15,613 bases of DNA from a virus (taxonomy: Duplodnaviria > Heunggongvirae > Uroviricota > Caudoviricetes), in the IMG/VR virus record IMGVR_UViG_3300038300_000093; one strand, given 5' to 3'. Shown one piece after another: positions 3,176 through 15,280 of this stretch. Position 1 is the stretch's first letter. Each line of letters begins with the position of its first letter. The notes under the pieces are model-generated. The model had not been told where the DNA came from, did not search any database, and saw nothing but the letters and a program-made list of their open reading frames with translations. The translations under genes were made by a program, and so were the position numbers.

Positions 3176-3208
3176 AATATTATTAGGGCTTAATTAAGTT
3201 TAAGCCCT
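3176..3208 (-). promoter_or_regulatory. Unit 10, degenerate (palindrome kept, boxes decayed)
   Basis: AGGGCTTAA 3185-3193 / TTAAGCCCT 3200-3208; -35 TTAAAC. Confidence 0.4.
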
Positions 3209-3218
3209 TTTAAGCCGT

Positions 3219-3614
3219 CTAGCTCGCTTTCTTTTCCTCTTTCCACTCATCGAGTTGATCAGCTCTCTCGGATGCCTTCTTTGCCCATGTATACGATCCA
3301 CAGCCATAAGAGTTGTATTCTCTTTCTCTCCTTCTTTGTTCCTGCTCATACTCTTGAACTGTAACAAGTTCCCAGTCAACACAATATTCTTCACTATAGT
3401 CATCTTTATAACTAATAGAGTTAATTACACTTTGTGCAAAATCCTCAATGCCGTCTTGAGCTTCATCTAAAGAAAGTTCACGGCTTATGTAGTCGAAGCC
3501 TCCTTTGAATTTCCAGTACTGCGGGCATTCGCCTTTCCCGTCCCATGAGTGAGCGCCATAGTTTTCTTTGTACTGCATGGTGATGAATATTAAAAATGTG
3601 CTTGACTTACTCAT
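3219..3614 (-). CDS. Hypothetical protein, 131 aa; motif ENYGAHxWDGxGECPQYWKFKGG recalled from T4-like/large phage hypotheticals
   Basis: ORF track frame; start moved from 3665 to 3614 using RBS 3620-3625. Confidence 0.9.
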   Translation of the reverse strand: MSKSSTFLIFITMQYKENYGAHSWDGKGECPQYWKFKGGFDYISRELSLDEAQDGIEDFAQSVINSISYKDDYSEEYCVDWELVTVQEYEQEQRRREREYNSYGCGSYTWAKKASERADQLDEWKEEKKAS

Positions 3615-3663
3615 GATGATGTCCTTTTCTTTTTTAAGTTGCTTAGTGCTTCTTACTGATATC

Positions 3664-3691
3664 AATATAAGGGCTTAACCGTTAAAGTCAA
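3664..3691 (-). promoter_or_regulatory. Unit 11 promoter
   Basis: TTGACT-16-TATATT. Confidence 0.8.
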
Positions 3692-3704
3692 GCCCTGTTT
3701 TAAA

Positions 3705-3848
3705 TTACTTTCCCCACTTTATTACAAAAAAGTTTTCATTGCTCGCATTTGCCAAAAACAGAGTTACCATTGTATCAATATAAAACAAATCTCTTGACAT
3801 TCTAAATTCTTCATCTCTTGTTACTAGATCTATTAAGTTGCTGTTCAT
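3705..3848 (-). CDS. 47-aa hypothetical protein MNSNLIDLVTRDEEFRMSRDLFYIDTMVTLFLANASNENFFVIKWGK
   Basis: Manual translation; RBS 3854-3859; unit 12. Confidence 0.75.
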   Translation of the reverse strand: MNSNLIDLVTRDEEFRMSRDLFYIDTMVTLFLANASNENFFVIKWGK

Positions 3849-3904
3849 GATGATGTCCTTTTCTTTCTGTTTTGTAAGCTTGCTTAGTGCTTCTTACTAA
3901 TCTT

Positions 3905-3932
3905 ACTATAGTGGTACTTTGGGCTTTTGCAA
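3905..3932 (-). promoter_or_regulatory. Unit 12 promoter
   Basis: TTGCAA-16-TATAGT. Confidence 0.8.
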
Positions 3933-3947
3933 GCCCTATTTTGAAAT

Positions 3948-4430
3948 TTATTTTAATTGATTGAATATTTCTAATGCTTTTTTGTATTCATCCTCAGTGC
4001 CTCTTGGAATATCAAAAGCTACAAAGATAAAAGAGTCATCGCTGTCGTTTGGCTTTAAGCGGTGGCTTATGTCTGATCTTAGTAAAACTACTTCACCAGT
4101 ATTAACGACAATTTTATCATCCTCAGTTTCTATTATCCTGCCTTCTGACTTTATTATTACCATTACTGAGTAGCTGAATGTATCAACGTGCCAATTACTC
4201 TCTTGGCAGAATGTAACTCTATGGTAAAAATAATCCATTGCCTCGCTACTCATGAAGCTCTCTAGCTTCTCGTATATTTCTTCTACAATTTCAAATCCTT
4301 CGATAAAGTCATCGTTAGACGTTATTACATTTCCCGTCCTAGTCTCATAGTTGTCACTTATTCTTTCTGACCATGAAGATAAAAGCTCAAGTGAAAGTGA
4401 TCCTATATTTGATGATTGAATTTCTGTCAT
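3948..4430 (-). CDS. Cupin / 2OG-Fe(II)-oxygenase-like double-stranded beta-helix protein, 160 aa
   Basis: WHVD...GEVVLLRSDISHRLKP fits an HxD...H metal triad; RBS 4437-4442; unit 13. Confidence 0.65.
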   Translation of the reverse strand: MTEIQSSNIGSLSLELLSSWSERISDNYETRTGNVITSNDDFIEGFEIVEEIYEKLESFMSSEAMDYFYHRVTFCQESNWHVDTFSYSVMVIIKSEGRIIETEDDKIVVNTGEVVLLRSDISHRLKPNDSDDSFIFVAFDIPRGTEDEYKKALEIFNQLK

Positions 4431-4468
4431 TGTCTTTGTCCTTTTGATTAGTTGTTCTTACTAATCTT

Positions 4469-4496
4469 ACTATAGTGGTGTTTAGGGCTTTTGCAA
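4469..4496 (-). promoter_or_regulatory. Unit 13 promoter
   Basis: TTGCAA-16-TATAGT. Confidence 0.8.
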
Positions 4497-4514
4497 GCCC
4501 TGTTTTAAATTATT

Positions 4515-4667
4515 TTAATTGTTCACCATGAAGTCAAGATCTTCATGAGATATTTCAGAAGGCTCGCACCATCCATAACCATCGGGACGTACTTTTGTTT
4601 CTTTGTACTCTCCCGTAAACCAGTTATAGCAAATGTGAGTCGTGCCGTTATATTTTCTAGTAGCCAT
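4515..4667 (-). CDS. 50-aa hypothetical protein MATRKYNGTTHICYNWFTGEYKETKVRPDGYGWCEP...
   Basis: Manual translation; RBS 4674-4679; unit 14. Confidence 0.8.
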   Translation of the reverse strand: MATRKYNGTTHICYNWFTGEYKETKVRPDGYGWCEPSEISHEDLDFMVNN

Positions 4668-4705
4668 TGTCTTTGTCCTTTTGATTAGTTGTTCTTACTA
4701 ATCTT

Positions 4706-4733
4706 ACTATAGTGGTTGTTTGGGCTTTTGCAA
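4706..4733 (-). promoter_or_regulatory. Unit 14 promoter
   Basis: TTGCAA-16-TATAGT. Confidence 0.8.
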
Positions 4734-4751
4734 GCCCTACTTTGAATTATT

Positions 4752-5183
4752 TTATACTTTTTCTTTTTCTTTTCTTATTTCTTCAAAATATGCTTCACTT
4801 CCTCTTGTGTCTAATACTACTTTTAAATCCTTTTCTTTGATGAAATCGTTTATCATTGAATCAAAATCAGATTGCCATCTATCATCAAAACAAGAATAGC
4901 TTCCTTTCTGAATCGTTACATCTTCTTTAACGATTGTTTTGCTCTCATCATAAATGCCGTTTGGCTCCGGGTTGTTCCAGCCTTCTAAGATCAAAATGTC
5001 AGGACTTCCACCGCATGGCGTGTAAATCTTTCTGTATGATGTTCTCTTGCGTTTTGGAGTGTGGATTACTTCCAAGGCATTAGGATATTGAGCGTACTTT
5101 CTGAAAGTGAAAGACTTAAGCTTTGTTTCAGTTGCAACTATGTTGCCCATAAATTCTGACTTGCTGTAGATTGTTACTTTCAT
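4752..5183 (-). CDS. Hypothetical protein, 143 aa (KYAQY.NA...PKRKR motif)
   Basis: ORF track; RBS 5190-5195; unit 15. Confidence 0.9.
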   Translation of the reverse strand: MKVTIYSKSEFMGNIVATETKLKSFTFRKYAQYPNALEVIHTPKRKRTSYRKIYTPCGGSPDILILEGWNNPEPNGIYDESKTIVKEDVTIQKGSYSCFDDRWQSDFDSMINDFIKEKDLKVVLDTRGSEAYFEEIRKEKEKV

Positions 5184-5224
5184 GATCTTTGTCCTTTTTA
5201 AGTTTAGTTGTTCTTACTAATCTT

Positions 5225-5252
5225 AATATAGTAGCTCAAACGAATAGTTCAA
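5225..5252 (-). promoter_or_regulatory. Unit 15 promoter
   Basis: TTGAAC-16-TATATT. Confidence 0.8.
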
Positions 5253-5265
5253 GCCCTATTTTGAA

Positions 5266-5484
5266 TTATTTTAAATTTTTCTCTTCCCACCAATCACACA
5301 TAGATTTAAACTTATCTCTTCTAATCTGTCTGCCCCGCTTCATGGCTTCGCTTCTTGAGCTTTCCCTATTGTTAACACAGTGAGGAACTCCAGTTCTCCC
5401 ATCTGGTGCTAGAATGTCTATTTCAAAATGTCCCCGTCCAATCCCCTGCTTAGTGACACTTATGTAAAAATCTGATAGTTTCAT
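5266..5484 (-). CDS. Hypothetical protein, 72 aa, translationally coupled to the upstream gene
   Basis: ORF track; ATGA overlap at 5481-5484. Confidence 0.75.
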   Translation of the reverse strand: MKLSDFYISVTKQGIGRGHFEIDILAPDGRTGVPHCVNNRESSRSEAMKRGRQIRRDKFKSMCDWWEEKNLK

Positions 5485-5651
5485 TTTAACAACTCTGCTT
5501 TGTATTCTCTTCCATTCGGATGAAAGAAAGTTACAATTTCATAATTTCCTTTTCTTTCTATTTTTCTTATCTTCGCTGTAAATGTTTCTGTAGATGATTC
5601 TATTACACGCTCTGGAAGATTGTCAAATTCTTTTTTACATAAACGTCTCAT
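5481..5651 (-). CDS. Hypothetical protein, 56 aa (MRRLCKKEFD...)
   Basis: ORF track frame; start moved from 5753 to 5651 using RBS 5658-5663. Confidence 0.8.
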   Translation of the reverse strand: MRRLCKKEFDNLPERVIESSTETFTAKIRKIERKGNYEIVTFFHPNGREYKAELLK

Positions 5652-5673
5652 GATCTTTGTCCTGTTGGTTATT

Positions 5674-5687
5674 GGGGCTTTCGCCCC
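5674..5687 (-). other. GGGGC-GAAA-GCCCC tetraloop hairpin in a promoterless intergenic gap
   Basis: 5-bp all-GC stem with GNRA loop on minus; no U-tract. Confidence 0.6.
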
Positions 5688-5694
5688 TGCCTTT

Positions 5695-5895
5695 CTAGTA
5701 GAATTCAATTCTTTGGTAAGTTTCAAACTCAAAGTCTTCACAGCCTGCATCAATTAAAGCGTCAGACGCTTCATTGTAGTTCATTGAGTTACTTACTACG
5801 AAATCTGATCCCTCTTGCTTTAGATGCTTTGCGTCGGTGAATCCTGCTTTGTGCAGTGCTTTGACTGCTTTCTTGATGTTGCTTGACTTACTCAT
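5695..5895 (-). CDS. Hypothetical protein, 66 aa
   Basis: ORF track; RBS 5902-5907; unit 16. Confidence 0.85.
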   Translation of the reverse strand: MSKSSNIKKAVKALHKAGFTDAKHLKQEGSDFVVSNSMNYNEASDALIDAGCEDFEFETYQRIEFY

Positions 5896-5949
5896 GGTGT
5901 TTGTCCTTTTCTTTTTTTGTAAGCTTGCTTAGTGCTTCTTACTAAAATT

Positions 5950-5977
5950 AATATAGTGGTGCTTTGGGCTTTTGCAA
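5950..5977 (-). promoter_or_regulatory. Unit 16 promoter (drives a 3-gene operon)
   Basis: TTGCAA-16-TATATT. Confidence 0.8.
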
Positions 5978-5993
5978 GCCCTGTTTTAAAAGT

Positions 5994-6176
5994 TTATTTA
6001 ACAATCTCAAAATGTATATCTTCAATTAAAAGATCTGTTCCGCCTTTCTCTCCCCATCCTTTCAATCCTGCTCTACTTCTTATAGAAGCGTTGAAAGCGC
6101 TCTTCTTCCCTTCTGATGTCGTTCCTCTGTAGTCTTTGTGGATTGACTGAAATTGTTTGTTTGTTAGCTGTATCAT
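5994..6176 (-). CDS. Hypothetical protein, 60 aa (IHKDYRG...GT.LL.E..HFEI motif)
   Basis: ORF track; RBS 6183-6188; unit 17. Confidence 0.85.
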   Translation of the reverse strand: MIQLTNKQFQSIHKDYRGTTSEGKKSAFNASIRSRAGLKGWGEKGGTDLLIEDIHFEIVK

Positions 6177-6222
6177 GATCTTTGTCCTTTTTAAGTTTAG
6201 TGTTGTCTTTCTTACTAATCTT

Positions 6223-6250
6223 AATATAGTAGCTCAATCTAATAGTTCAA
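6223..6250 (-). promoter_or_regulatory. Unit 17 promoter
   Basis: TTGAAC-16-TATATT. Confidence 0.8.
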
Positions 6251-6263
6251 GCCCTATTTAAAA

Positions 6264-6461
6264 TTATCTTCTTCCTTTCTTTCTGAGTTTCTTTTTTGCT
6301 GATTTGCTTAACTGCTTTGGCTTTGTTGCTCTGTTACTTACTTGCCTTGTGAGTCCTAAAGACTTTATACGTCCTTTTCTTTTACTATCTTTAAACTTGC
6401 ATTCGTTGTCAGTTCTGCCACAATCGCAGAGCTCGCAATCTGTCCCGCATTTCCTATTCAT
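6264..6461 (-). CDS. 65-aa Cys-rich, highly basic protein (putative Zn and nucleic-acid binding)
   Basis: Start moved from 6512 to 6461 using AAAGGACT 6469-6476; five Cys then a K/R-rich tail. Confidence 0.8.
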   Translation of the reverse strand: MNRKCGTDCELCDCGRTDNECKFKDSKRKGRIKSLGLTRQVSNRATKPKQLSKSAKKKLRKKGRR

Positions 6462-6497
6462 TTTATTTAGTCCTTTAGTTTGTTTCTTACTAAGCTT

Positions 6498-6525
6498 ACT
6501 ATAAGGGCTCAACCGGATAAGTCAA
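6498..6525 (-). promoter_or_regulatory. Unit 18 promoter
   Basis: TTGACT-16-TATAGT. Confidence 0.8.
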
Positions 6526-6541
6526 GCCCTGTTTAAAATTA

Positions 6542-6820
6542 TTATTTTCCTAGAAATGCAACATTTTCGCCAGTGAATACTTTATTAACCTTTTGCCATA
6601 GCCAGAAATGCAATTCATGATTTCCGCTTTCTATTTCATCAGCCTTTTTTAAATCCTCTTTAAGATTCAAATCTTTTGCCTCTTCCGTCACGTGAGAGGC
6701 GTAGTTATCTTCTTTGCGGATTGCCTTGGCAAGCTCTCTTTCTTCTTGCGCGACTATCTTAAATGCTGCGTTAAGCTCTTCCTGAGTCTTTTGCTGTCCT
6801 TCACTTGTAATGAATTTCAT
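6542..6820 (-). CDS. Hypothetical protein, 92 aa
   Basis: ORF track; RBS 6828-6833; unit 19. Confidence 0.9.
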   Translation of the reverse strand: MKFITSEGQQKTQEELNAAFKIVAQEERELAKAIRKEDNYASHVTEEAKDLNLKEDLKKADEIESGNHELHFWLWQKVNKVFTGENVAFLGK

Positions 6821-6866
6821 TTGTCTTTGTCCTTTTTAAGTTTAGTTTGTCTTTCTTACTAAGCTT

Positions 6867-6894
6867 ACTATAAGGGCTCAACTTGATTAGTCAA
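6867..6894 (-). promoter_or_regulatory. Unit 19 promoter
   Basis: TTGACT-16-TATAGT. Confidence 0.8.
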
Positions 6895-6907
6895 GCCCTG
6901 TTTTAAA

Positions 6908-7339
6908 TTAAACTACTTCAAAAGGAATATTTTCTCTGTTGTCGTCTATTGCCTTTCTAAGCTTCTTAAAATAGTTTGTTAAGTGCTTTACAATTTGTTC
7001 AGCGGTTGCTTTGTTCTTCTTTCTAAAGCCAGTCTTAACGCGACCATAACAAAGATGTGAATCTTTGGGAGGATTGATTAAGATTGATCCACCAGTACCA
7101 CTTGAAACTTCCATGTCGTTCGTGCTGTTGCCTTCTTTATCAAATCCATAAATCATAACAGAGTGAAAGCTCGGATCGTTCTGTCTGATGCCGTTTGAGT
7201 GCTTTGACTCTTCTTGTATTCCAAAGCCTAAAGCGATATGTCTTGTCAGTCCTACTTTATACGCTGATGCCCAGTAACCGCTTCCTAGTTCTTTCTTGAA
7301 AGCTTCTGTCAGTGCTGTTACCATTTCTTGATTTTTCAT
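6908..7339 (-). CDS. Hypothetical protein, 143 aa
   Basis: ORF track; RBS 7344-7349; unit 20. Confidence 0.9.
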   Translation of the reverse strand: MKNQEMVTALTEAFKKELGSGYWASAYKVGLTRHIALGFGIQEESKHSNGIRQNDPSFHSVMIYGFDKEGNSTNDMEVSSGTGGSILINPPKDSHLCYGRVKTGFRKKNKATAEQIVKHLTNYFKKLRKAIDDNRENIPFEVV

Positions 7340-7383
7340 ATTGTGTCCTTTCTTTTGTTTGAGTTGTCTTTCTTACTAAGCTT

Positions 7384-7411
7384 ACTATAAGGGCTCAACT
7401 CATTAAGTCAA
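7384..7411 (-). promoter_or_regulatory. Unit 20 promoter
   Basis: TTGACT-16-TATAGT. Confidence 0.8.
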
Positions 7412-7425
7412 GCCCTATTTTAAAA

Positions 7426-7653
7426 TTATTTTAAAGGAGTATAGACGAAATCAATATATTCTTTTTCAAAAGACTCAACGGCTTTTTGATAGTCTGTAAA
7501 GCTTGCCTCATACTTTTCCGTTTCATTGTTCTGTATGTGATGGCAAACTAATTTATTTTCAATGGTATACATTCTATTGAAAACTAATGTGTACTTACTG
7601 AGCTCTGTTATCTCAGTTCTTTTTTTTCCTGATGGTTTGTAGTTTGTAAACAT
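7426..7653 (-). CDS. Hypothetical protein, 75 aa
   Basis: ORF track; RBS 7658-7663; unit 21. Confidence 0.85.
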   Translation of the reverse strand: MFTNYKPSGKKRTEITELSKYTLVFNRMYTIENKLVCHHIQNNETEKYEASFTDYQKAVESFEKEYIDFVYTPLK

Positions 7654-7693
7654 GTTTTGTCCTTTGGTTTAGTTTGTCTTTCTTACTAATCTT

Positions 7694-7721
7694 AATATAG
7701 TAGCTCAACTTGATACTTCAA
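7694..7721 (-). promoter_or_regulatory. Unit 21 promoter
   Basis: TTGAAG-16-TATATT. Confidence 0.8.
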
Positions 7722-7742
7722 GCCCTATTTTGAAATAAATGC

Positions 7743-7791
7743 AAAAAAAAGATCCTAAGCCAAAAAGGACATTAAAGGCTTAGGATCTTTT
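7743..7791 (-). terminator. Intrinsic terminator with AAAAAGGACA-containing loop (plus sense)
   Basis: 15-bp perfect inverted repeat 7747-7761 / 7777-7791; T8 on minus. Confidence 0.9.
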
Positions 7792-7805
7792 GAAACTTAA
7801 ATTAC

Positions 7806-8630
7806 TTAATAAAAAGAACTTTTTCTCTTTTTACCTCTGTTAAAGTCGATCTTTGGATTTCTCTTCTTTTTACTATGACTCTCTGCCTGTTTTTTTTCTC
7901 TATACGCCTTCTTATCCTTTTCGTATTTGGCAACATCTGATAATTTAGCTTTATAATATTTATCAAATCTTCCACAAAATTCAACATCCCATTGATCTGG
8001 TTTCCACAATATTCTGTTGTTATTTATCTTTGCTTTAATTTCCCTGTATGTCTTAGAAGCTTCTCCTTTCTCTTTATTTAAAGCTTTTTTTACTTCTAAG
8101 TACTTCCCAACAATGCCGTAATATTCTTTCACTTTCAGCATTGAATTTAAATGATCTTTTTGTTGTATAAGAACTTGAGCCTTCGCGGCTTTAACTTCTG
8201 GCAGCCGATGATCATGAAGTCCTTTCACTTTAATTGTCCACCACATCGAACACGCTTTTCGACTGCTTGACTTTTGTTTTTCTATCAAAGCATCTAAAGA
8301 TTTTTTAACACGATAACCTTTATCCTTCAAAGCTTTCATCTGTTTTAATTCTTCTTGAGTGTAAGAATCTTTTGCCTTCTCAGCTAATTCTTTTGCTTTT
8401 GCTTTCTCAGCTAATTCTTTTGCTTTCTCAGCTAATTCTTTTTCTTTTGCTTTCTTTTCTTTATATATTCGATAATTCTCAGCCAACTTTTCGTTTACTT
8501 GTCGCGCTTTTTCCGATCTCTCCTTGTTTGTCTTTTCAATAAGAGCTCTTTTCTTTTTGTTTAGTTCATCCCTGTCAGTTGCCGTCAAACTAATACTGAA
8601 TAGGAAGAGTATTGTTAATAATATTTTCAT
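7806..8630 (-). CDS. Lys-rich coiled-coil protein with N-terminal signal peptide, 274 aa
   Basis: MKILLTILFLFSISLTA signal-like; ELAEKAK x3; atypical RBS; unit 22; followed by a terminator. Confidence 0.85.
   Translation of the reverse strand: MKILLTILFLFSISLTATDRDELNKKKRALIEKTNKERSEKARQVNEKLAENYRIYKEKKAKEKELAEKAKELAEKAKAKELAEKAKDSYTQEELKQMKALKDKGYRVKKSLDALIEKQKSSSRKACSMWWTIKVKGLHDHRLPEVKAAKAQVLIQQKDHLNSMLKVKEYYGIVGKYLEVKKALNKEKGEASKTYREIKAKINNNRILWKPDQWDVEFCGRFDKYYKAKLSDVAKYEKDKKAYREKKQAESHSKKKRNPKIDFNRGKKRKSSFY
8371..8452 (-). repeat. Intragenic tandem repeat encoding KELAEKA(K) three times
   Basis: ttctcagctaattcttt occurs three times; 21-bp tandem pair at about 8400-8441. Confidence 0.9.
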
Positions 8631-8663
8631 TTATATTCTCTTTGTTAGTTAGTTTACTTGTTT

Positions 8664-8691
8664 AATATAATGTTACTTAGGGCTCTTTCAA
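8664..8691 (-). promoter_or_regulatory. Unit 22 promoter
   Basis: TTGAAA-16-TATATT. Confidence 0.8.
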
Positions 8692-8706
8692 GCCCTGCTT
8701 TAAAGT

Positions 8707-8973
8707 TTAAGCAATATATCTATTCAATTCAAAATTATTGCTTATATTGTTGCCACGATTATAAACTTGGAAGTGTAAAGATTTATTCTTTACAAGCTTA
8801 TTGTTCTTGTATACTGGGACTGATACTCTAGTCGTCTTTCCCTCTTTAGGACGCTTTGAGTTCATTCCGACTAGAACAGCCACTTCTTCTTGATCAGTAG
8901 TGAATCCCTCGCTTATAACGTGATTCAAAGCGGTTTCAACTGCTGATGTGTATGATGAGTGATAAAGTTGCAT
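8707..8973 (-). CDS. Hypothetical protein, 88 aa (LH.QVYNRG...ELN.YI motif, phage-type)
   Basis: ORF track; canonical AGGAG RBS near 8979-8984; unit 23. Confidence 0.9.
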   Translation of the reverse strand: MQLYHSSYTSAVETALNHVISEGFTTDQEEVAVLVGMNSKRPKEGKTTRVSVPVYKNNKLVKNKSLHFQVYNRGNNISNNFELNRYIA

Positions 8974-9026
8974 GTCTAACTCCTGATGAAATTTTGTAAG
9001 CTTGCTTAGTGCTTCTTACTAATCTT

Positions 9027-9054
9027 AATATAGTAGCACTAATGATTATTACAA
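9027..9054 (-). promoter_or_regulatory. Unit 23 promoter
   Basis: TTGTAA-16-TATATT. Confidence 0.8.
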
Positions 9055-9077
9055 GCCCTGTTTTAAATTATTTTTAA

Positions 9078-9338
9078 TTAAAACCATACAGTGTGAAATT
9101 CGACATCATCAAGCTCACTCGCCCCACAAGCATCGACAATCTGTTTATCATTTAGTATTTCTTTAAAAGCATTTAGAATAGCGTTCTCATGTTTAAAGAC
9201 TGGAATGTTCCAAAGTCCTACAGAACTATTCTCTAAGCCATCCTTATCCACATTTAAGAATAGTTCTATTATACTGCCCGACTGAACTATATTATAGCCG
9301 TGCTTACGACAAATTCTTGTGATTAATTTTCTCTTCAT
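9078..9338 (-). CDS. Hypothetical protein, 86 aa (MKRKLITRICRKHG...)
   Basis: Start moved from TTG 9407 to ATG 9338 using AAAGGATG 9343-9350. Confidence 0.75.
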   Translation of the reverse strand: MKRKLITRICRKHGYNIVQSGSIIELFLNVDKDGLENSSVGLWNIPVFKHENAILNAFKEILNDKQIVDACGASELDDVEFHTVWF

Positions 9339-9348
9339 GTCGCATCCT

Positions 9349-9376
9349 TTAATATTGTATCTTAGGGCTCTTTCAA
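9349..9376 (-). promoter_or_regulatory. Unit 24, collapsed (no leader, poor -10)
   Basis: TTGAAA-16-TATTAA; palindrome AGGGCT/AGCCCT intact. Confidence 0.45.
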
Positions 9377-9388
9377 GCCCTGTTGTGA

Positions 9389-9520
9389 TTAGGAAGCATT
9401 CTTCCAACTCTTGTCCTTTCTGCTGTAGTTCTTCTTAGACTCTACAACACGAGTTGTTGGATTGAATCCCCAACTTCTGCGATTAAGCTTTGTTGGATCT
9501 GATATTTTGATCTTTTTCAT
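9389..9520 (-). CDS. 43-aa basic protein MKKIKISDPTKLNRRSWGFNPTTRVVESKKNYSRKDKSWKNAS (R..W..NP.TRV..SKK.Y.RK motif recalled from phage small proteins)
   Basis: Manual translation; RBS 9527-9532; unit 25. Confidence 0.85.
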   Translation of the reverse strand: MKKIKISDPTKLNRRSWGFNPTTRVVESKKNYSRKDKSWKNAS

Positions 9521-9566
9521 TTTCTTGTCCTTTCTAAGTTTTAGTTGTCTCTCTCTTACTAATCTT

Positions 9567-9594
9567 AATATAAGGGCTCAAACTCATTGTTCAA
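9567..9594 (-). promoter_or_regulatory. Unit 25 promoter
   Basis: TTGAAC-16-TATATT. Confidence 0.8.
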
Positions 9595-9612
9595 GCCCTA
9601 TTTTGAATAATA

Positions 9613-9771
9613 TTAAACTTTTTTAGAATCTTCATCATCTGAACCGAAAAGTTCATCCATAAGTTCTTTAGTGCTGGAGTAGGATCTTCTATCAGAATCA
9701 TCTTTTGATCTTTGTTTTATTAAAGGCTTTATATCTCTTTCCCACTCTGCTTCTTTTTCATCTTCAGTCAT
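9613..9771 (-). CDS. 52-aa charged hypothetical protein (MTEDEKEAEW...)
   Basis: Start moved from 9822 to 9771 using AGGAGT 9776-9781. Confidence 0.8.
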   Translation of the reverse strand: MTEDEKEAEWERDIKPLIKQRSKDDSDRRSYSSTKELMDELFGSDDEDSKKV

Positions 9772-9807
9772 AATAACTCCTATTAATTTGATTAACTTAC
9801 TAATCTT

Positions 9808-9835
9808 AATATAAGGGCTCAAATGATTATTACAA
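9808..9835 (-). promoter_or_regulatory. Unit 26 promoter
   Basis: TTGTAA-16-TATATT. Confidence 0.8.
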
Positions 9836-9842
9836 GCCCTAT

Positions 9843-10052
9843 TTAAAATTTATTTAAAACATATTCATCACTTGATCCGATTCTTTCAAAATTCTTTTCT
9901 TTGTCAGCATCTTCAATCTTAACAATCTTATATGAATGTCCAGTTCTCTTGCCAAGGCGATTCCATCCCGCTACAATTCCGTCCTCTTTGCCTCTCTCGC
10001 AATAGCGGTGATCTTCTCTTGTTCCATTGCAACTGTATGTAAACTTGATCAT
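9843..10052 (-). CDS. Hypothetical protein, 69 aa
   Basis: ORF track; RBS 10059-10064; unit 27. Confidence 0.85.
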   Translation of the reverse strand: MIKFTYSCNGTREDHRYCERGKEDGIVAGWNRLGKRTGHSYKIVKIEDADKEKNFERIGSSDEYVLNKF

Positions 10053-10078
10053 TGTGTGTGTCCTTTTTAAGTTGTTAT

Positions 10079-10106
10079 ACTATAGCGGTGCTTAGGGCTA
10101 TTTCAA
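10079..10106 (-). promoter_or_regulatory. Unit 27 promoter
   Basis: TTGAAA-16-TATAGT. Confidence 0.8.
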
Positions 10107-10120
10107 GCCCTGTTTATAAT

Positions 10121-10312
10121 TTAAGCTATCAGTATTTCTTCGATCTTCATATTATATGAGTCTTGAAGATCATTCATAGTTGCATTACTGCCATGAATAT
10201 TATCATTAATGTAATTTTGAATGTCAGCTTCTTCTATGTTGTCTGGAATGCTTACAGTTCCACTCCACTCTTCAGTGACTCTTTGAATAATTTTTACGTT
10301 TATTTCTTTCAT
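10121..10312 (-). CDS. Hypothetical acidic protein, 63 aa
   Basis: ORF track; RBS 10319-10324; unit 28. Confidence 0.85.
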   Translation of the reverse strand: MKEINVKIIQRVTEEWSGTVSIPDNIEEADIQNYINDNIHGSNATMNDLQDSYNMKIEEILIA

Positions 10313-10349
10313 TTTCTTTGTCCTTTTGTTTGATTAACTTACTAATCTT

Positions 10350-10377
10350 ACTATAAGGGCTCAAATGATTATTACAA
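10350..10377 (-). promoter_or_regulatory. Unit 28 promoter
   Basis: TTGTAA-16-TATAGT. Confidence 0.8.
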
Positions 10378-10393
10378 GCCCTATTTAAAACTA

Positions 10394-10678
10394 TTATGCA
10401 ACTTTACCAAGTGGCGTTACATTTCCGTTTAATACTTCAACCAATGTTTCAACTGAGATTTTTAACTTAAGATTAAATCCGAATGAATCTTTTCTATAGT
10501 AAAGCCCTTCATTGTCAATTAACACTTCGCGAGTGATCATCTCTTTATTGCCTGCTTCGTATTCAAAAGCAATCCCTGTATGATGTCCTGCGTTTAGATT
10601 AGGATAATCAGTTAGTATGCTATTTGTTACTGTAGTGATCAACTGGCGGAGTTCTGTGGTATTGAATGGCTTCTTCAT
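10394..10678 (-). CDS. Hypothetical protein, 94 aa (MKKPFNTTEL...)
   Basis: Start moved from 10738 to 10678 using RBS 10684-10689. Confidence 0.85.
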   Translation of the reverse strand: MKKPFNTTELRQLITTVTNSILTDYPNLNAGHHTGIAFEYEAGNKEMITREVLIDNEGLYYRKDSFGFNLKLKISVETLVEVLNGNVTPLGKVA

Positions 10679-10723
10679 GATGATGTCCTTTTCTTTTGTT
10701 TGATTGTCTTTCTTACTAAGCTT

Positions 10724-10751
10724 ACTATAAGGGCTCAACTCATTAAGTCAA
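10724..10751 (-). promoter_or_regulatory. Unit 29 promoter
   Basis: TTGACT-16-TATAGT. Confidence 0.8.
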
Positions 10752-10764
10752 GCCCTATTTTAAA

Positions 10765-11121
10765 CTATTCTCCTAAACATTGACAACATTGTCCGCTGTC
10801 GTATCCTCGGCCTGTCGGCTCTCCGCATGAATAACATTCATAATCATCATCATCGGGACATGGTCTCTCTTCTTCGATCTCTGGTTGCTGTGACTCTAAC
10901 TGTAATGATTTTTCCAAAGTCATTACAACAAAATTATATCTGCCAGTTGCCCACTTGTCAGCCCAGTCTTGATCAAACTTTAAAACTTTTTTAATTTCAG
11001 CCTTACTATCAGACGTGAGATAAACACTCTTACCAAGATACTTGAAAGTTTTTGATTCATTGAAATATAATTTTCTTTTGATATATCCTGTCGTATCGTC
11101 TGCGATTACTAATTGCGCCAT
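10765..11121 (-). CDS. Hypothetical protein, 118 aa, with C-terminal CxxC...CxxC zinc-ribbon-like motif
   Basis: ORF track; RBS 11127-11132; no own promoter (second gene of an operon). Confidence 0.85.
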   Translation of the reverse strand: MAQLVIADDTTGYIKRKLYFNESKTFKYLGKSVYLTSDSKAEIKKVLKFDQDWADKWATGRYNFVVMTLEKSLQLESQQPEIEEERPCPDDDDYECYSCGEPTGRGYDSGQCCQCLGE

Positions 11122-11134
11122 TTCCTTGTCCTCT

Positions 11135-11344
11135 TTACTTTCTACTGTCTGATACTTCTGTTCTAACGTCAGAGCCTTTCAAGCCTATCTTGTTAGCTTC
11201 TCCATTGGCGAAATCTTTGATTTCCTTGAGTTCTTTTATCAAGTTGTCAACTTCATCAGTATCTCCTCTCATATCCCACATCAATTTGTTTTGAATCTTC
11301 AAACCATTATTCTTGATGCTGATTGTTACAAATACTCTTTTCAT
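11135..11344 (-). CDS. Hypothetical protein, 69 aa (MKRVFVTISI...)
   Basis: Start moved from 11374 to 11344 using RBS 11350-11355. Confidence 0.85.
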   Translation of the reverse strand: MKRVFVTISIKNNGLKIQNKLMWDMRGDTDEVDNLIKELKEIKDFANGEANKIGLKGSDVRTEVSDSRK

Positions 11345-11372
11345 TGTCTTGTCCTTTTCTTTAAGTTGATTC

Positions 11373-11400
11373 AATATATATGTCGTTTAGATTATTACAA
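11373..11400 (-). promoter_or_regulatory. Unit 30 promoter (drives a 2-gene operon)
   Basis: TTGTAA-16-TATATT. Confidence 0.75.
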
Positions 11401-11530
11401 GCCATATTTTAAAAAAAGGGCCACATCTTGTTAATTCAAGTTCTTCCTAATCTTTTCAATTAAGACGTATTTTATATCCCTATGAAGGATAACTATATAC
11501 TAATGCAAGCACTAAGTTGTTTTTATAACT

Positions 11531-11746
11531 CTACATTGTTATGTAGAGTTCTACGCATTCCTTAGAGTAGCCTTCTGCTTTCGCTCTTTCTCTAAAGCGT
11601 TCTTCTGTGGTAGGGAGATTCCTCAGTGTGAATCTGTTCCCTGATGCAGACTGTCTGCACTTTTCCCATAGTCTCATAAGGCGGAAGGCGCTGTCTGATC
11701 CTCCTGCCAACTCCTCTAGGCGATCGTTTTCTTCTTGTTCTGTCAT
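11531..11746 (-). CDS. Hypothetical protein, 71 aa
   Basis: ORF track; RBS 11754-11759; unit 31. Confidence 0.85.
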   Translation of the reverse strand: MTEQEENDRLEELAGGSDSAFRLMRLWEKCRQSASGNRFTLRNLPTTEERFRERAKAEGYSKECVELYITM

Positions 11747-11776
11747 TTCTCTGTGTCCTTTTATTTAAGATAATTT

Positions 11777-11804
11777 AATATAAGGGCTTAACCGTTAAAG
11801 TCAA
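11777..11804 (-). promoter_or_regulatory. Unit 31 promoter
   Basis: TTGACT-16-TATATT. Confidence 0.8.
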
Positions 11805-11817
11805 GCCCTGTTTTAAA

Positions 11818-12009
11818 TTAATCAGCTTTAATATCTGAGTAAATCATCATATCTCTTTCTTTACAGTGGAATTCTAACAATCCTTCTGAATCAATATAAG
11901 TTTCTTTCTTTGAACTAATATTAAATACAGTCATGATTTGTTCTTCTGTAAGATCGGCTTTGAACTTTGTTACTATCTTATTTCCCAGTACTACTGTTAA
12001 TTCATTCAT
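11818..12009 (-). CDS. Hypothetical protein, 63 aa
   Basis: ORF track; RBS 12016-12021; unit 32. Confidence 0.85.
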   Translation of the reverse strand: MNELTVVLGNKIVTKFKADLTEEQIMTVFNISSKKETYIDSEGLLEFHCKERDMMIYSDIKAD

Positions 12010-12040
12010 TGTCTTTGTCCTTTTTCTTTAAGTTATTTAC

Positions 12041-12068
12041 ACTATAGTGGTTGTTTGGGCTTTTGCAA
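12041..12068 (-). promoter_or_regulatory. Unit 32 promoter
   Basis: TTGCAA-16-TATAGT. Confidence 0.8.
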
Positions 12069-12081
12069 GCCCTATTTTGAA

Positions 12082-12399
12082 TTAATCCTCTATTCTATCG
12101 TGAATTGATACTGGTTGACCGCTTACCGCTTCTCTAAAGCGACTATCACAACTCCAAGCAAAGTTACCGCCTGCCATACAATGACGCTTTGAATCGGATG
12201 GCTTGAGACTAAGGCAAGTACTGCCAAAGATTTCTCTCTTGATCAAATCCACTCTCAGAGCTTCAGGAGCGTTTTCCTCCTTGATCCATCCTCTTGGATG
12301 TTCTATGTAAAGAAGATCCGTCTTACTGCTTAATCCTTTGTTTGTGCAATCTCCAAGGCGAGAATCTCTTAGTACGCTTACTGATATGAATTTTTTCAT
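12082..12399 (-). CDS. Hypothetical protein, 105 aa; GDCTN.G.SS...M.GGNF...DSRF...P..IHDR.E family recalled from diverse phages
   Basis: ORF track; RBS 12405-12410; unit 33. Confidence 0.9.
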   Translation of the reverse strand: MKKFISVSVLRDSRLGDCTNKGLSSKTDLLYIEHPRGWIKEENAPEALRVDLIKREIFGSTCLSLKPSDSKRHCMAGGNFAWSCDSRFREAVSGQPVSIHDRIED

Positions 12400-12452
12400 T
12401 TTGCTGTCCTTTCTAAGTTTTGTAAGCCTGCTTAGTGCTTCTTACTATTCTT

Positions 12453-12480
12453 AATATAGTAGCTCAAATTATTATTGCAA
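12453..12480 (-). promoter_or_regulatory. Unit 33 promoter
   Basis: TTGCAA-16-TATATT. Confidence 0.8.
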
Positions 12481-12500
12481 GCCCTATTTTAAATTATTTT

Positions 12501-12526
12501 AAAAAAAGCTCTAAGTTAATAGAGCC
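12501..12526 (-). terminator. Intrinsic terminator
   Basis: GCTCTA 12508-12513 / TAGAGC 12520-12525; T7 on minus. Confidence 0.7.
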
Positions 12527-12535
12527 TTGATTATT

Positions 12536-12589
12536 TTACATTCCGTTGGTTTCTTCACGTCCACCGTCATTCTTGTCGTGGTCATTCAT
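12536..12589 (-). CDS. Possible 17-aa micropeptide MNDHDKNDGGREETNGM
   Basis: Manual translation; AAAGGAAC RBS 12595-12602; own promoter (unit 34) and terminator. Confidence 0.45.
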   Translation of the reverse strand: MNDHDKNDGGREETNGM

Positions 12590-12625
12590 AATATGTTCCT
12601 TTGTTTTGTTGTTGTTTACTATCTT

Positions 12626-12653
12626 AACTTAATGGCTTAACTCGATCTTTCAA
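12626..12653 (-). promoter_or_regulatory. Unit 34 promoter
   Basis: TTGAAA-16-TAAGTT. Confidence 0.6.
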
Positions 12654-12672
12654 GCCCTTTTTTGATTAATCT

Positions 12673-13032
12673 TTAAGATACTTTAAGCATTTCTTCTATT
12701 TCAGATGGTGTGCTCTCACAATGTAAATTTGGAAGAGGAACAGAAAGCGTGTTTCTGTAAGAATCTAACAGAGTGAATCTTTTAACAATTTCATTCACTT
12801 TCTTTTCATTAATCCAGTAATGTTTAGACTTGTCTAAATTGTCCCATGCTTCTTTAATAGCCTTCTCTGTGACGCTGAAACACATGTTGGTGCTTGAGTA
12901 TACACGAGCATCTACTTTAGAGCCATCAAGCAAAGTAAGAATGACTTGTACATCTTCACTACTTACTACGCCATGTAGACTTCTTATACTTCCCGCTCTG
13001 ACTGTCAGAGATAATGTTTTATAGTTTTTCAT
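12673..13032 (-). CDS. Hypothetical protein, 119 aa (MKNYKTLSLT...)
   Basis: Start moved from 13089 to 13032 using RBS 13040-13045. Confidence 0.85.
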   Translation of the reverse strand: MKNYKTLSLTVRAGSIRSLHGVVSSEDVQVILTLLDGSKVDARVYSSTNMCFSVTEKAIKEAWDNLDKSKHYWINEKKVNEIVKRFTLLDSYRNTLSVPLPNLHCESTPSEIEEMLKVS

Positions 13033-13052
13033 TTGCTGTTGTCCTTTTAAAG

Positions 13053-13130
13053 TTAGTAGTGAGAGAGAACCATTTCTTTTAACCTTCACACTATTACGTG
13101 TTCTTCGGAGTTATTCTCTCTCACTACTTA
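13053..13130. repeat. 15-bp perfect inverted repeat enclosing 44 nt in a 5'UTR (possible MITE or structured leader)
   Basis: AGTAGTGAGAGAGAA 13055-13069 / TTCTCTCTCACTACT 13114-13128. Confidence 0.85.
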
Positions 13131-13131
13131 T

Positions 13132-13159
13132 ACTATAAGGGCTCAAACTTATTGTTCAA
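13132..13159 (-). promoter_or_regulatory. Unit 35 promoter
   Basis: TTGAAC-16-TATAGT. Confidence 0.8.
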
Positions 13160-13172
13160 GCCCTATTTTGAA

Positions 13173-13493
13173 TTATTTGTAATGAATTTCCATTACATCT
13201 CCACTGTCTTTAACATCATTCTTTATTGCAAGAACTATGAGCTTGTTGATTTGCCATTCTAGCATAACATCATCAATTTCGCCTTCAATCTCAGGAACTG
13301 TATTCAAAACGATCATTTTGATCTCAAAGAGTCTCTTCTTCTTTTCAAATCGTTCTGTCAAGTCAGTGCGGATCTTTTCAACTGTAGTCATATCATCGTT
13401 TAGACGAGAGGCAAGAGCCTTCAATTCGTTACAGCTTTCACCATCAAAACAGCGTTCTTTACAGTACTCACAAACTTCATTGTCTTTTGTCAT
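13173..13493 (-). CDS. Hypothetical protein, 106 aa, N-terminal CxxCxxxC-x5-C
   Basis: Start moved from 13559 to 13493 using RBS 13499-13504. Confidence 0.85.
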   Translation of the reverse strand: MTKDNEVCEYCKERCFDGESCNELKALASRLNDDMTTVEKIRTDLTERFEKKKRLFEIKMIVLNTVPEIEGEIDDVMLEWQINKLIVLAIKNDVKDSGDVMEIHYK

Positions 13494-13538
13494 TGTATTG
13501 TCCTTTTCTTTTGTTGAGTTGTCTTTCTTACTAATCTT

Positions 13539-13566
13539 AATATAAGGGCTTAAACTCATTGTTCAA
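13539..13566 (-). promoter_or_regulatory. Unit 36 promoter
   Basis: TTGAAC-16-TATATT. Confidence 0.8.
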
Positions 13567-13581
13567 GCCCTATTTAAATTA

Positions 13582-13929
13582 TTAGTTCATTATTCCTATT
13601 TTATTGTCATCTGTAACATAAGCATCAAAAGATCCATAAGGCTTACAAAGTTCTGTCAACTTATCGCCTTCATTGTAATCACCATCCCAAAATCCTGCCC
13701 CATGTCCATTACATGTTAAAATGAAATCGTGAGCGATCTGAGACAAGTCTTGATCTTCACTGTTGATCAGTTCAGCATTAGAGCTGTAGAAGTCCTCAAA
13801 CTTGATCTGTAGATTCTTTGCATCTTCTTTTAAGATGTCCTCATTTGAATAGTCATCAAGATAATCATCTCCGTCAGAACTACTCCAAAGAAGAGTTTCA
13901 AATAGGCTGTTGATAGTTTCTGTTTTCAT
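13582..13929 (-). CDS. Acidic hypothetical protein, 115 aa; HDF.LT.NGHGAGFWD family recalled from phages
   Basis: Start moved from 13986 to 13929 using RBS 13934-13939. Confidence 0.9.
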   Translation of the reverse strand: MKTETINSLFETLLWSSSDGDDYLDDYSNEDILKEDAKNLQIKFEDFYSSNAELINSEDQDLSQIAHDFILTCNGHGAGFWDGDYNEGDKLTELCKPYGSFDAYVTDDNKIGIMN

Positions 13930-13971
13930 GTTGTGTCCTTTTGTTTGTTTAGTTTGTTTCTTACTAATCTT

Positions 13972-13999
13972 AATATAGTAGCCCAAACTATTAATGCAA
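13972..13999 (-). promoter_or_regulatory. Unit 37 promoter
   Basis: TTGCAT-16-TATATT. Confidence 0.8.
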
Positions 14000-14020
14000 G
14001 CCCTATTTTAAAATAAATGC

Positions 14021-14099
14021 AAAAAAAAGAGTTAAGCCAAAAGGACAGTAAAGGCTTAACTCTATAAACTAAGTACAAAGGACAGTAAGACTTAGTTTT
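14021..14099 (-). terminator. Tandem hairpins; the first is a minus-strand terminator
   Basis: 11-bp IR 14028-14038/14053-14063 with T8 on minus; 9-bp IR 14066-14074/14090-14098. Confidence 0.85.
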
Positions 14100-14108
14100 A
14101 GCTACTGG

Positions 14109-14228
14109 TCAGTTACGCTTAAGGAGCTTAACTTTTACCAATAACTTTCCCCACCATTTTAAATCATCATACCAGAGAATATCATCTATCAGTTCTATCA
14201 TTGCAAAATCTTCTTCATAACTACTCAT
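14109..14228 (-). CDS. 39-aa peptide MSSYEEDFAMIELIDDILWYDDLKWWGKLLVKVKLLKRN (acidic N-half, basic C-half)
   Basis: Manual translation; RBS 14235-14240; unit 38. Confidence 0.7.
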   Translation of the reverse strand: MSSYEEDFAMIELIDDILWYDDLKWWGKLLVKVKLLKRN

Positions 14229-14252
14229 TGTCTTTGTCCTTTTCTTTAAGAT

Positions 14253-14280
14253 ACTATAAAGGCTTAACTCGATTAGTCAA
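14253..14280 (-). promoter_or_regulatory. Unit 38 promoter
   Basis: TTGACT-16-TATAGT. Confidence 0.8.
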
Positions 14281-14283
14281 GTC

Positions 14284-14640
14284 CTACTTTGAAATTAATT
14301 TGCGTAATTCGCAAGTCATTAAACCATCATCGATTTTTACGCCTGACTTTCTTAGAGTTCTTTTAATCTGAATTACTTCTTTGCGGTTTTCTATTAAGTC
14401 TCTCATCTGAATTGATTCTAACTTTTGAGAGAGTAAAAGTCTTTCATGTGCTAAAGTTCTGTATGAATCCAATTCATTACAATCTAAGAACTCTTCATGG
14501 CTTGACCATACAAGCATTGCATTGTTGCTTATGTGACTGCTGTCGTGTTTCTTTGATCTCTTCTTTATCAGATCATCAAAAGGCTTTATCTTGATGTCTA
14601 GCTCTTCGATTTGATTTCTTAGTTTGATTACATGTTTCAT
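14284..14640 (-). CDS. Hypothetical protein, 118 aa (MKHVIKLRNQ...)
   Basis: Start moved from 14688 to 14640 using RBS 14645-14650; TAG lies inside unit 38. Confidence 0.85.
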   Translation of the reverse strand: MKHVIKLRNQIEELDIKIKPFDDLIKKRSKKHDSSHISNNAMLVWSSHEEFLDCNELDSYRTLAHERLLLSQKLESIQMRDLIENRKEVIQIKRTLRKSGVKIDDGLMTCELRKLISK

Positions 14641-14673
14641 TGTTTGTCCTTTTGTTGTTATCTTACTAAGATT

Positions 14674-14701
14674 AATATAAGGGCTCAACCGTTAAAGTCA
14701 A
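14674..14701 (-). promoter_or_regulatory. Unit 39 promoter
   Basis: TTGACT-16-TATATT. Confidence 0.8.
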
Positions 14702-14716
14702 GCCCTACTTTAAAGA

Positions 14717-15106
14717 TTAACCGGAGACAACAGAGGCATTGATTACAAGATCTACAGGGAGCTTGTAAGTATTACCATCTCTTGCATCTTTTCCAAGTAC
14801 TGGATATTTACTTGCTCTTGGTTTAAGTCCAACAATTTCAAGAGTCTTTCCTTGAATCATTACAGTCTTTCCAAGTAATGATTCGTCAAGTCCAAGGAAC
14901 TTTGCATTTTCATTCCAATCAATCATTGCTTTTGTAACCACTGATCCGTCAGTGGAATTTTCAACAACTTCAAGTTTAAGATTGAAACTTAAATCTGAAT
15001 AACTTGCAGATCCTGCTGAGATAGTACAGCCATGCTTTTCAGCTACTGCTTTGAGAGCTTCGTTGATGTCTTCTCTCATTGTGCGTATTTTTTGTTTTGT
15101 TATCAT
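14717..15106 (-). CDS. Hypothetical protein, 129 aa (G.KPRA.KYP...DG.TYK motif, phage-type)
   Basis: Start moved from 15133 to 15106 using RBS 15113-15118. Confidence 0.9.
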   Translation of the reverse strand: MITKQKIRTMREDINEALKAVAEKHGCTISAGSASYSDLSFNLKLEVVENSTDGSVVTKAMIDWNENAKFLGLDESLLGKTVMIQGKTLEIVGLKPRASKYPVLGKDARDGNTYKLPVDLVINASVVSG

Positions 15107-15160
15107 TTTGTATGTCCTTTTCTTTTTTAGCAAGCTTGCTTAGTGCTTCTTACTAATCTT

Positions 15161-15188
15161 AATATAGTAGCTCAATTAAATACTTCAA
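15161..15188 (-). promoter_or_regulatory. Unit 40 promoter
   Basis: TTGAAG-16-TATATT. Confidence 0.8.
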
Positions 15189-15209
15189 GCCCTTTTTAAA
15201 AAGAAATGC

Positions 15210-15280
15210 AAAAAAAAGAGTTAAGCCAAAAGGACAGTAAAGGCTTAACTCTTATAAACTAAGAAGGGCTTAGTTTTTTT
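15210..15280. terminator. Back-to-back terminators (minus-strand hairpin 1, plus-strand hairpin 2)
   Basis: 12-bp IR 15216-15227/15242-15253 with T8 on minus; AAACTAAG/CTTAGTTT IR 15256-15276 followed by T-run on plus. Confidence 0.85.

Follow-up and report, generated by a model that had tools for sequence, protein, structure and literature searches.

To our knowledge, the shut-off of early genes in large phages is understood in only a few model phages, among them T4 with its RegB protein. RegB is an endoribonuclease that acts on the sequence GGAG(RAYARAA) in the ribosome sites of early genes (PMC3014915; PMC1702504). In Alphaproteobacteria, the small RNAs (sRNAs) of the cuckoo/CcsR type consist of two to four adjacent hairpins that share one conserved anti-Shine-Dalgarno-like loop motif, on stems that vary by compensatory changes (PMC4615179). 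A third kind of element, the PeSLs of Arbiol et al. (2010), comprises strong sigma-70-like promoters fused to stem-loops, located before orphan genes and driving modular shuffling (PMC2839356). Here, we analyzed a 15,613-nucleotide (nt) stretch of viral DNA (Caudoviricetes; record IMGVR_UViG_3300038300_000093), in the following called the window, in which the loops of hairpins at transcript 3′ ends are complementary to a sequence tag located in front of the start codons of a large array of small genes. From sequence comparison and predicted folds, we propose with roughly even confidence that these loops, residing in the 3′ ends of early mRNAs, pair with the ribosome-site tag that the early genes have in common.

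The window, which lies within a JGI metagenome contig of 44 kb or more, contains ~39 small genes, all on the minus strand, some of whose proteins match phage-only families without known function. Nearly each gene is preceded by a shared unit, which consists of an AT-rich tract, GGGCTTGA at the -35 position within a palindrome, a 16-nt spacer, a TATAGT or TATATT -10 element, a short leader and the tag AAAGGACA. With ~35 units that carry GGGCUUGA at -35 under the palindrome, followed by the spacer and -10 element of this kind, and with a gene order that is rearranged in relatives at 70-87% identity, the array consists of PeSL-type promoter cassettes of the early genes of an uncultured large phage, and the published description fits (PMC2839356). 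The tag occurs 36 times in the window, compared to 1.2 expected occurrences. All 32 copies on the minus strand are located just 5′ of a start codon, and the four copies on the plus strand are found at 7764-7771, 14040-14047, 14077-14084 and 15229-15236. The CA following AAAGGA lies beyond the core of the tag that pairs with 16S ribosomal RNA and is near-invariant; it has no possible pairing with the standard 16S tail and is complementary in both bases to the loops described below, which is a possible reason for its constancy.

The four plus-strand copies correspond to hairpin loops at three terminator sites (T1, T2 and T3, Table 1), which on the transcribed minus strand show UGUCCUUU, the exact complement of AAAGGACA, here called the anti-tag. 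These four loops and their perfectly paired stems had been noticed in an earlier, sequence-only reading of the window, and motif search and folding bore them out; that reading had also taken the loop as the exact complement of a ribosome-binding site before 34 genes, of which the complementarity holds and the number becomes 32 for the exact 8-mer. The minus-strand RNA of all four sites folds into perfect hairpins, whose 14-15-nt loops leave the motif unpaired (probability of being unpaired 0.94-0.99), and the folds are more stable than those of shuffled sequence, with z-scores of -6.6, -4.5 and -5.4. On the minus strand, T1, T2b and T3b lie downstream of stop codons and combine perfect stems of 11-15 base pairs (bp) with a subsequent U8. 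They are Rho-independent terminators of early transcripts, in one case as part of a two-hairpin 3′ end; T2a, the hairpin without a U-tract, falls outside this definition. The loops of intrinsic terminators are typically 3-8 nt long, whereas the anti-tag loops have 12-18 nt, for which reason a consensus terminator scan missed them, and the other terminator class of the same phages has loops of 6 nt. These oversized loops display the complement of a private Shine-Dalgarno extension that is common to the early genes, AAAGGACA in the window and GGACACACU in a distant relative.

We identified at least 13 related contigs from other samples in a metagenome scan with the promoter-leader pattern and found further relatives (L187, L221 to L224, L236, L237 and L240) by protein look-up. 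The related contigs have 70-87% nucleotide identity to the window in pieces, with shuffled gene order. Stem pairs were tabulated by script from the loop outward; MAFFT had misaligned the outer stems. The loop core GUCCUUU persists on no fewer than five stem backgrounds that differ by compensatory changes, namely AAAAGAUCCUAAGCC, AGAGUUAAGCC, AGAGUUAAACC (a G-C to A-U double change), AAACUAAGU or AAACUGAGU (with a G.U pair) and GAAGCUAG. Among the loop variants of the T1/T2b family, these 7 nt are invariant and the changes fall just outside them: the base 5′ of UGUCC is C, A or U (UUUA[C/A/U]UGUCC), and in L129 the U of UGUCC is replaced by G, giving UUAGGUCC. The loop of L107, UUUGUGUCC, is complementary to GGACACAAA, that is, to the tag together with the common spacer. 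Hairpins occur in adjacent pairs at T2a and T2b and in L151, L223 (two pairs), L129 and L240, and singly at T1 and in L107. The earlier proposal of a conserved loop on covarying stems has weaker support within the window than that reading had assumed, since T2b and T3b are identical there and T1 shares inner pairs with them; it is strengthened by the relatives, which keep the core on different stems. The outcome is mixed when homologous terminators are compared for variable loops, because two homologues lack the motif and those on eight related contigs keep it.

A distant relative, L224, has only 55% protein identity in the gene that links it to the window and uses a different promoter (GCGTGAC..TATATTATATTAA). 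Its invariant tag is longer, AAGGACACACUAAAAUG (AAGGACACACU...), and present in 16 of 28 start regions. The invariant part of the start region is AAAGGACA in the group of the window and GGACACACU in L224. On the sense strand of L224, GUGUCC occurs three times, in all cases at terminators. Two of the three copies, UUCGUGUCCUU and UUUGUGUCC, are single-stranded and immediately precede the hairpin on its 5′ side. The third belongs to the apical loop AUAGUGUGUCC, whose complement GGACACACUA corresponds to 10 nt of L224's own tag. This match suggests that the anti-tag shifts its register to whichever segment of the start region does not vary in the respective phage, and it is the closest approach to a co-variation of tag and loop that we obtained.

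The frequency of the motif was evaluated in 127.9 kb of sense-strand sequence from 18 related contigs, of which the apical loops of U-tract terminators make up 0.35%. Of the 47 occurrences of TGTCC in this sequence, 8 were found in such loops, compared to ~0.16 expected, and other 5-mers of the same composition were found there 0-1 times, except for two that overlap the motif. The count of eight is inflated by paralogy, with at least five lineages being independent. None of 31 unrelated bacterial hairpins that share the stem of T2b, obtained as a control in a stem-pair scan of bacterial genomes, has such a loop. This census of same-composition 5-mers was used in place of composition-preserving loop shuffles, which are a poor null because the U-rich composition makes up most of the motif.

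Those shuffles yielded weak p-values, and this is one of several findings that speak against a pairing function of the loops. T1, T2b and T3b are paralogous, non-independent copies of one duplicated terminator-plus-promoter module: T2b and T3b are identical in sequence, T1 shares the inner six pairs TAAGCC/GGCUUA, and all three sites continue with the same T-run, GCATTT and promoter class. The window has 39 start regions and only four anti-tag loops. As the tag is missing from the gene that precedes T1, simple self-pairing is not the general mode. The terminator with the loop UUAACU (Table 1) shows that the anti-tag is no general property of the terminators in the window, and most terminators of the clade belong to this other class, with 6-nt loops (UUAAAC, GUAAAA, UUAAUU) and no anti-tag. 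Homologous hairpins without the motif were found twice, T3a and a T2b-type terminator in L129 near 5470 (loop CAAUGA); L237 and L239 lack the T2 module at the corresponding position; L224 and L236 have loops with an imperfect GUCCCUU; and at L224:1347-1381 a sense-strand terminator loop shows the tag itself, AAAGGACAUAA, and may be an inverted copy or a decoy. The number of independent lineages sampled is small, ~6-9. Finally, loops are homogenized within the genome of L221 and the modules are mobile, so conservation could partly reflect recent exchange.

Several of these points would be expected if the loops were a by-product of cassette evolution, which we regard as possible but rather unlikely. 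The stems would stem from promoter arms and the loop would be a piece of the ribosome site that was inverted by recombination or template switching among the highly repeated cassettes; the module would have spread by duplication, exchange and gene conversion, with only the terminator hairpin being selected. PeSL cassettes are recombination substrates (PMC2839356), the module is present or absent between relatives, and a copy in sense orientation such as that of L224 is expected if loops flip between palindromic arms. One arm of T2b (14049-14062) is identical over 14 nt to an arm of the neighboring cassette's promoter stem-loop (14257-14270), which also weighs against a selected loop; the sequence-only reading had seen this identity, which is real, and had listed relics of inverted repeats among its options. 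The stems are evidently derived from cassette stem-loops, and the shared arms and mobile modules agree in part with such relics. What a by-product does not explain is that loop changes spare the 7-nt core whereas the stems change by compensatory pairs, that ~9 of 10 lineages have the antisense orientation, that terminators retain costly loops of 12-18 nt, and that L224, with another promoter and other stems, has anti-tags in another register that match its own invariant tag. Moreover, we know of no mutational mechanism that would repeatedly copy a start region in inverted orientation into hairpin loops.

The orientation of the motif also bears on the idea that it is a site for a protein or the ribosome, either as a double-stranded DNA site that is used in both orientations or as a loop that mimics the tag, on a plus-strand RNA or, as in L224, on the sense strand, and would titrate a factor that recognizes it, for instance protein S1, a repressor like CsrA or a nuclease like RegB. 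The tag exceeds what pairing with 16S requires, which makes another reader of the tag plausible, and the motif that RegB recognizes at the ribosome sites of T4 early genes is an extended one of 11 nt (PMC3014915). The sense-strand loop of L224 and a weak promoter-like match at 7674-7701, which precedes T1 in the plus-strand direction, point the same way. Nevertheless, we consider such a site improbable, as all genes and the U-tracts of 7-8 nt belong to the minus strand. On the plus strand, the corresponding runs do not exceed four U, and a promoter-like match is missing at two of the three sites. A double-stranded DNA site does not require the strong antisense bias that we observed, and neither CsrA nor RegB nor another RNA-binding family was found among the ten largest proteins of the window. 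The same facts leave little room for the earlier suggestion that a plus-strand RNA presents GGA as a decoy: in a sponge of the CsrB/RsmZ type, several GGA motifs are located in loops of the transcribed RNA, while the minus-strand loops show UCC and GGA is displayed in loops only on the gene-free plus strand, with the sense-orientation hairpin of L224 as the single exception.

Pairing of the loops with the tags, by contrast with the decoy, fared best among the earlier options, being favored by core conservation, loop enrichment and the own-tag match of L224, and the pairing itself is a prediction. We express it as duplex energies and accessibilities; RNAcofold cannot represent the pairing of a loop with a linear sequence while the stem stays closed. 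The predicted loop-tag duplexes have mean energies of -10 to -11 kcal/mol and reach -8 kcal/mol or better for 36 of the 39 start regions, and for the canonical 16S tail with the tag -6.8 kcal/mol was predicted. The tags are predicted to be mostly single-stranded within the leaders, with a mean probability of 0.74. An anti-tag loop may pair with the single-stranded tag of early mRNAs and compete with the 30S subunit, either in trans, through stable 3′ fragments that would accumulate during the decay of early mRNAs, or in cis, within the same transcript or a read-through transcript. The effect may consist of repression, timing, stabilization or insulation in cis, and a single short sequence could dampen the translation of all tagged genes or set its timing, as an RNA counterpart of the action of the RegB nuclease on the GGAG sites of T4 early mRNAs.

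The action might also be restricted to cis insulation, a special case of pairing without a trans or array-wide role, in which the loop in a read-through transcript pairs with the tag of the next gene ~100 nt downstream, so that this gene would be translated only from transcripts of its own promoter. A tagged start region does follow every anti-tag terminator within ~100-120 nt, and in the predicted fold of the whole short T2 transcript, the transcript's own tag and spacer are paired with T2a (z -2.95), so that pairing with a tag in cis is predicted to be energetically favorable. Most cassette boundaries have neither terminator nor anti-tag, which argues against a general need for insulation; furthermore, the anti-tag of L224 can also be located 5′ of the hairpin, and a single downstream site needs no architecture with two loops. 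We assign only a small likelihood to insulation as the sole function.

If the loops do pair with the tags, one RNA loop of 8-10 nt would govern dozens of otherwise unrelated orphan genes, which would explain why their ribosome site is longer than the ribosome needs, and terminators would double as regulators. Tag and anti-tag together would then provide a simple sequence rule to recognize early gene classes in genomes of uncultured phages. A wider scenario is more tentative, and we consider it less probable than the pairing as such: in a clade of large aquatic phages that possess a private tag and its complement in early terminator loops, nuclease-resistant 3′ hairpin fragments that build up while early genes are transcribed might titrate the tags and bring about a timed shut-off of early translation, an RNA-only analogue of RegB and one lineage of a wider phage strategy.

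Table 1 Features of the window and corresponding hairpins in related contigs (L numbers); positions refer to the window.
Feature	Position	Strand	Description
Tag AAAGGACA, 32 exact copies	315-15120	-	Proposed targets; small-gene start codon 3-8 nt downstream of each copy
Terminator T1	7743-7791	-	15-bp stem (7747-7761/7777-7791), 15-nt loop 7762-7776 (UUUAAUGUCCUUUUU); U-tract (U8) formed by 7743-7746 and the stem end; folding energy dG -22.4, z -6.55
Second-class terminator	12505-12526	-	6-nt loop UUAACU, U7, without anti-tag
Terminator T2b	14021-14063	-	Hairpin 14028-14063; 11-bp stem AGAGUUAAGCC, 14-nt loop UUUACUGUCCUUUU (14039-14052), then U8
Hairpin T2a	14066-14098	-	9-bp stem, 15-nt loop CUUACUGUCCUUUGU, without U-tract, 2 nt upstream of T2b
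Short transcription unit	14109-14250	-	Promoter-proximal leader with tag, 39-codon open reading frame, ends with T2a and T2b
14-nt identity	14257-14270	.	Arm of the neighboring cassette's promoter stem-loop, identical to T2b arm (14049-14062)
Terminator T3b	15210-15253	-	Hairpin 15217-15252; stem and loop as T2b (loop 15228-15241), then U8
Hairpin T3a	15256-15276	-	Stem of T2a, 5-nt loop CCCUU, without anti-tag; internal negative example
L151, L240			T2 pair; one stem change to a G.U pair
L223			Two pairs; one with stem AAGCC/GGCUU changed to AAACC/GGUUU (double compensatory), loop UUAUUGUCCUUU
L237			T3-type pair; hairpin 1 with short loop, hairpin 2 with UUAUUGUCCUUU
L221, L222 (near-identical strain)			U-tract loops of T1, T2b and T3b all UUUAAUGUCCUUUUU; T1 stem with a G.U pair
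L129 (DNA too divergent to align)			Pair; new first stem GAAGCUAG, loop UUCAUUUGUCCUUUGUUU; second loop UUAGGUCCUUUU
L107			Outer T1 stem kept, seven inner pairs all swapped for other perfect pairs; loop UUUGUGUCC

Further observations were made on the terminators and their neighborhood. In L221, a strain with ~98% protein identity, the hairpins at 8333-8371, 9866-9902 and 17554-17598, which correspond to T3b, T2b and T1, all have the T1-type loop, while the window has two loop types, a sign of gene conversion or of exchange among the terminator modules of one genome. The gene ending at T1 (7806-8630, minus strand) encodes the largest protein of the window, with 274 amino acids, a hydrophobic, signal-like N-terminal segment and lysine-rich KAKELAEKA repeats, for which no Pfam or PHROG match was found; only a few genes besides this one are without the tag. 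The second terminator family has variable G+C-rich stems and 6-nt loops from a small set (UUAAAC, GUAAAA, UUAAUU, UUAACU), often with the tail UUUUUUGUG; besides 12505-12526 in the window, it was observed at L187:10433-17100, L097:2990-3021 and 7513-7544, L186:3529-3552 and L111:2027-2056, mainly in gene blocks with GGAG-type ribosome sites and another promoter type (GGGCTTTACTTATC...). In the blocks of L187 with GGAG-type sites, the terminators lack anti-tags, which speaks in favor of pairing between anti-tag and tag. The second gene block of L187 also contains, in several intergenic regions (10520-10620, 11130-11200, 12170-12260, 14080-14130 and neighbors), a long imperfect inverted repeat with the arms TAGCCCACGGGGTTGGAGAAGTCT and AGACTTCTCCAACCCCGTGGGCTA, which by its sequence looks like a repeated structured element. 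At the start of the same contig, 100 N (97-196) take up precisely the loop position of a hairpin of the T2b type (AGAGTTAA...CTTAACTCT, then a T-run). The palindrome probably led to a gap in the assembly here, which makes this loop unreadable.

Within the cassettes of the window, the palindromes over the -35 box of many promoters (900-14700, for example 2097-2112, 3921-3936, 5966-5981 and 12057-12072) form compact hairpins on the plus strand that are followed by T-rich sequence. The terminator scan flagged ~10 of these, and they could block antisense transcription from entering the array. At 13053-13130, an element with 14-bp terminal inverted repeats takes the place of the standard leader of one cassette, with a gap of ~75 nt between promoter and tag. 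In L224, gene-poor regions with short tandem repeats (1-460 and 1400-1560; AAAACCATC units, and TTTTTTGAGGTTTTTTCAAG twice) adjoin the hairpin that carries the tag in sense orientation.

Searches of the IMG/VR collection with exact patterns for the promoter, the stem pair and the tag of L224 returned no relatives, and the pattern for the loop gave 57 matches, all of them single chance matches outside hairpins. A phage GenBank collection contained no near match, and the clade seems to be absent from IMG/VR. Relatives of a phrog_1915-like protein in other element types (L065, L066 and L233 to L235) were set aside, having no cassette arrays, as was L189, a relative at 60% identity whose promoters differ, whose ribosome sites are mixed and in which no terminator was informative. 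Rfam gave no match at E ≤ 1 except for one chance match to a small nucleolar RNA elsewhere, and our literature searches returned no published description of phage terminator loops that are complementary to a private early-gene tag.

Among antisense RNAs of phages, c4 of P1 and P7 is processed from the transcript of its own target and pairs at the target's ribosome-binding region. It differs from the arrangement described here in that ant is its only target and it has an RNA gene of its own, is not located in terminator loops and involves no tag shared by a gene class. The C/U-rich apical UCCC loops of RNAIII of Staphylococcus aureus resemble the anti-tag loops in that they initiate pairing with ribosome-binding sites, and sRNAs derived from 3′ untranslated regions illustrate that stable, terminator-containing 3′ fragments can regulate. 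Both kinds are host-encoded and have diverse targets, whereas here one loop fits start regions that are nearly identical and number in the dozens within one array. The PeSL cassettes of the T4-type phages RB49 and phi1 share the context of the window array, with a promoter plus stem-loop, small orphan genes and shuffling (PMC2839356). Their stem-loops are described as terminators or attenuators, with loops complementary to a ribosome site unmentioned in the available part of that source, while the anti-tag hairpins precede the promoter unit as terminators of their own, with U-tracts. In purpose, RegB of T4 comes closest, exerting class-wide control at an extended motif in the start regions of early genes (PMC3014915; PMC1702504); it is a protein nuclease, whereas the effector proposed here is a base-pairing RNA loop, and the ten largest proteins of the window include none that resembles RegB. 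In architecture, the cuckoo/CcsR sRNAs (RSs0680, alpha-r14) of Alphaproteobacteria are closest (PMC4615179; PMC8034643): T2a with T2b and the pairs of the relatives likewise are adjacent hairpins, within their range of two to four, with the same loop motif on variable stems. The motif of the phage loops is UGUCCUUU (or GUGUGUCC) with the core GUCCUUU instead of the cuckoo motif CCUCCUCCC, which they do not contain, and where the cuckoo RNAs have separate sRNA genes, the phage-encoded loops are located in mRNA 3′ ends and terminators and match a private tag of the phage's own genes.

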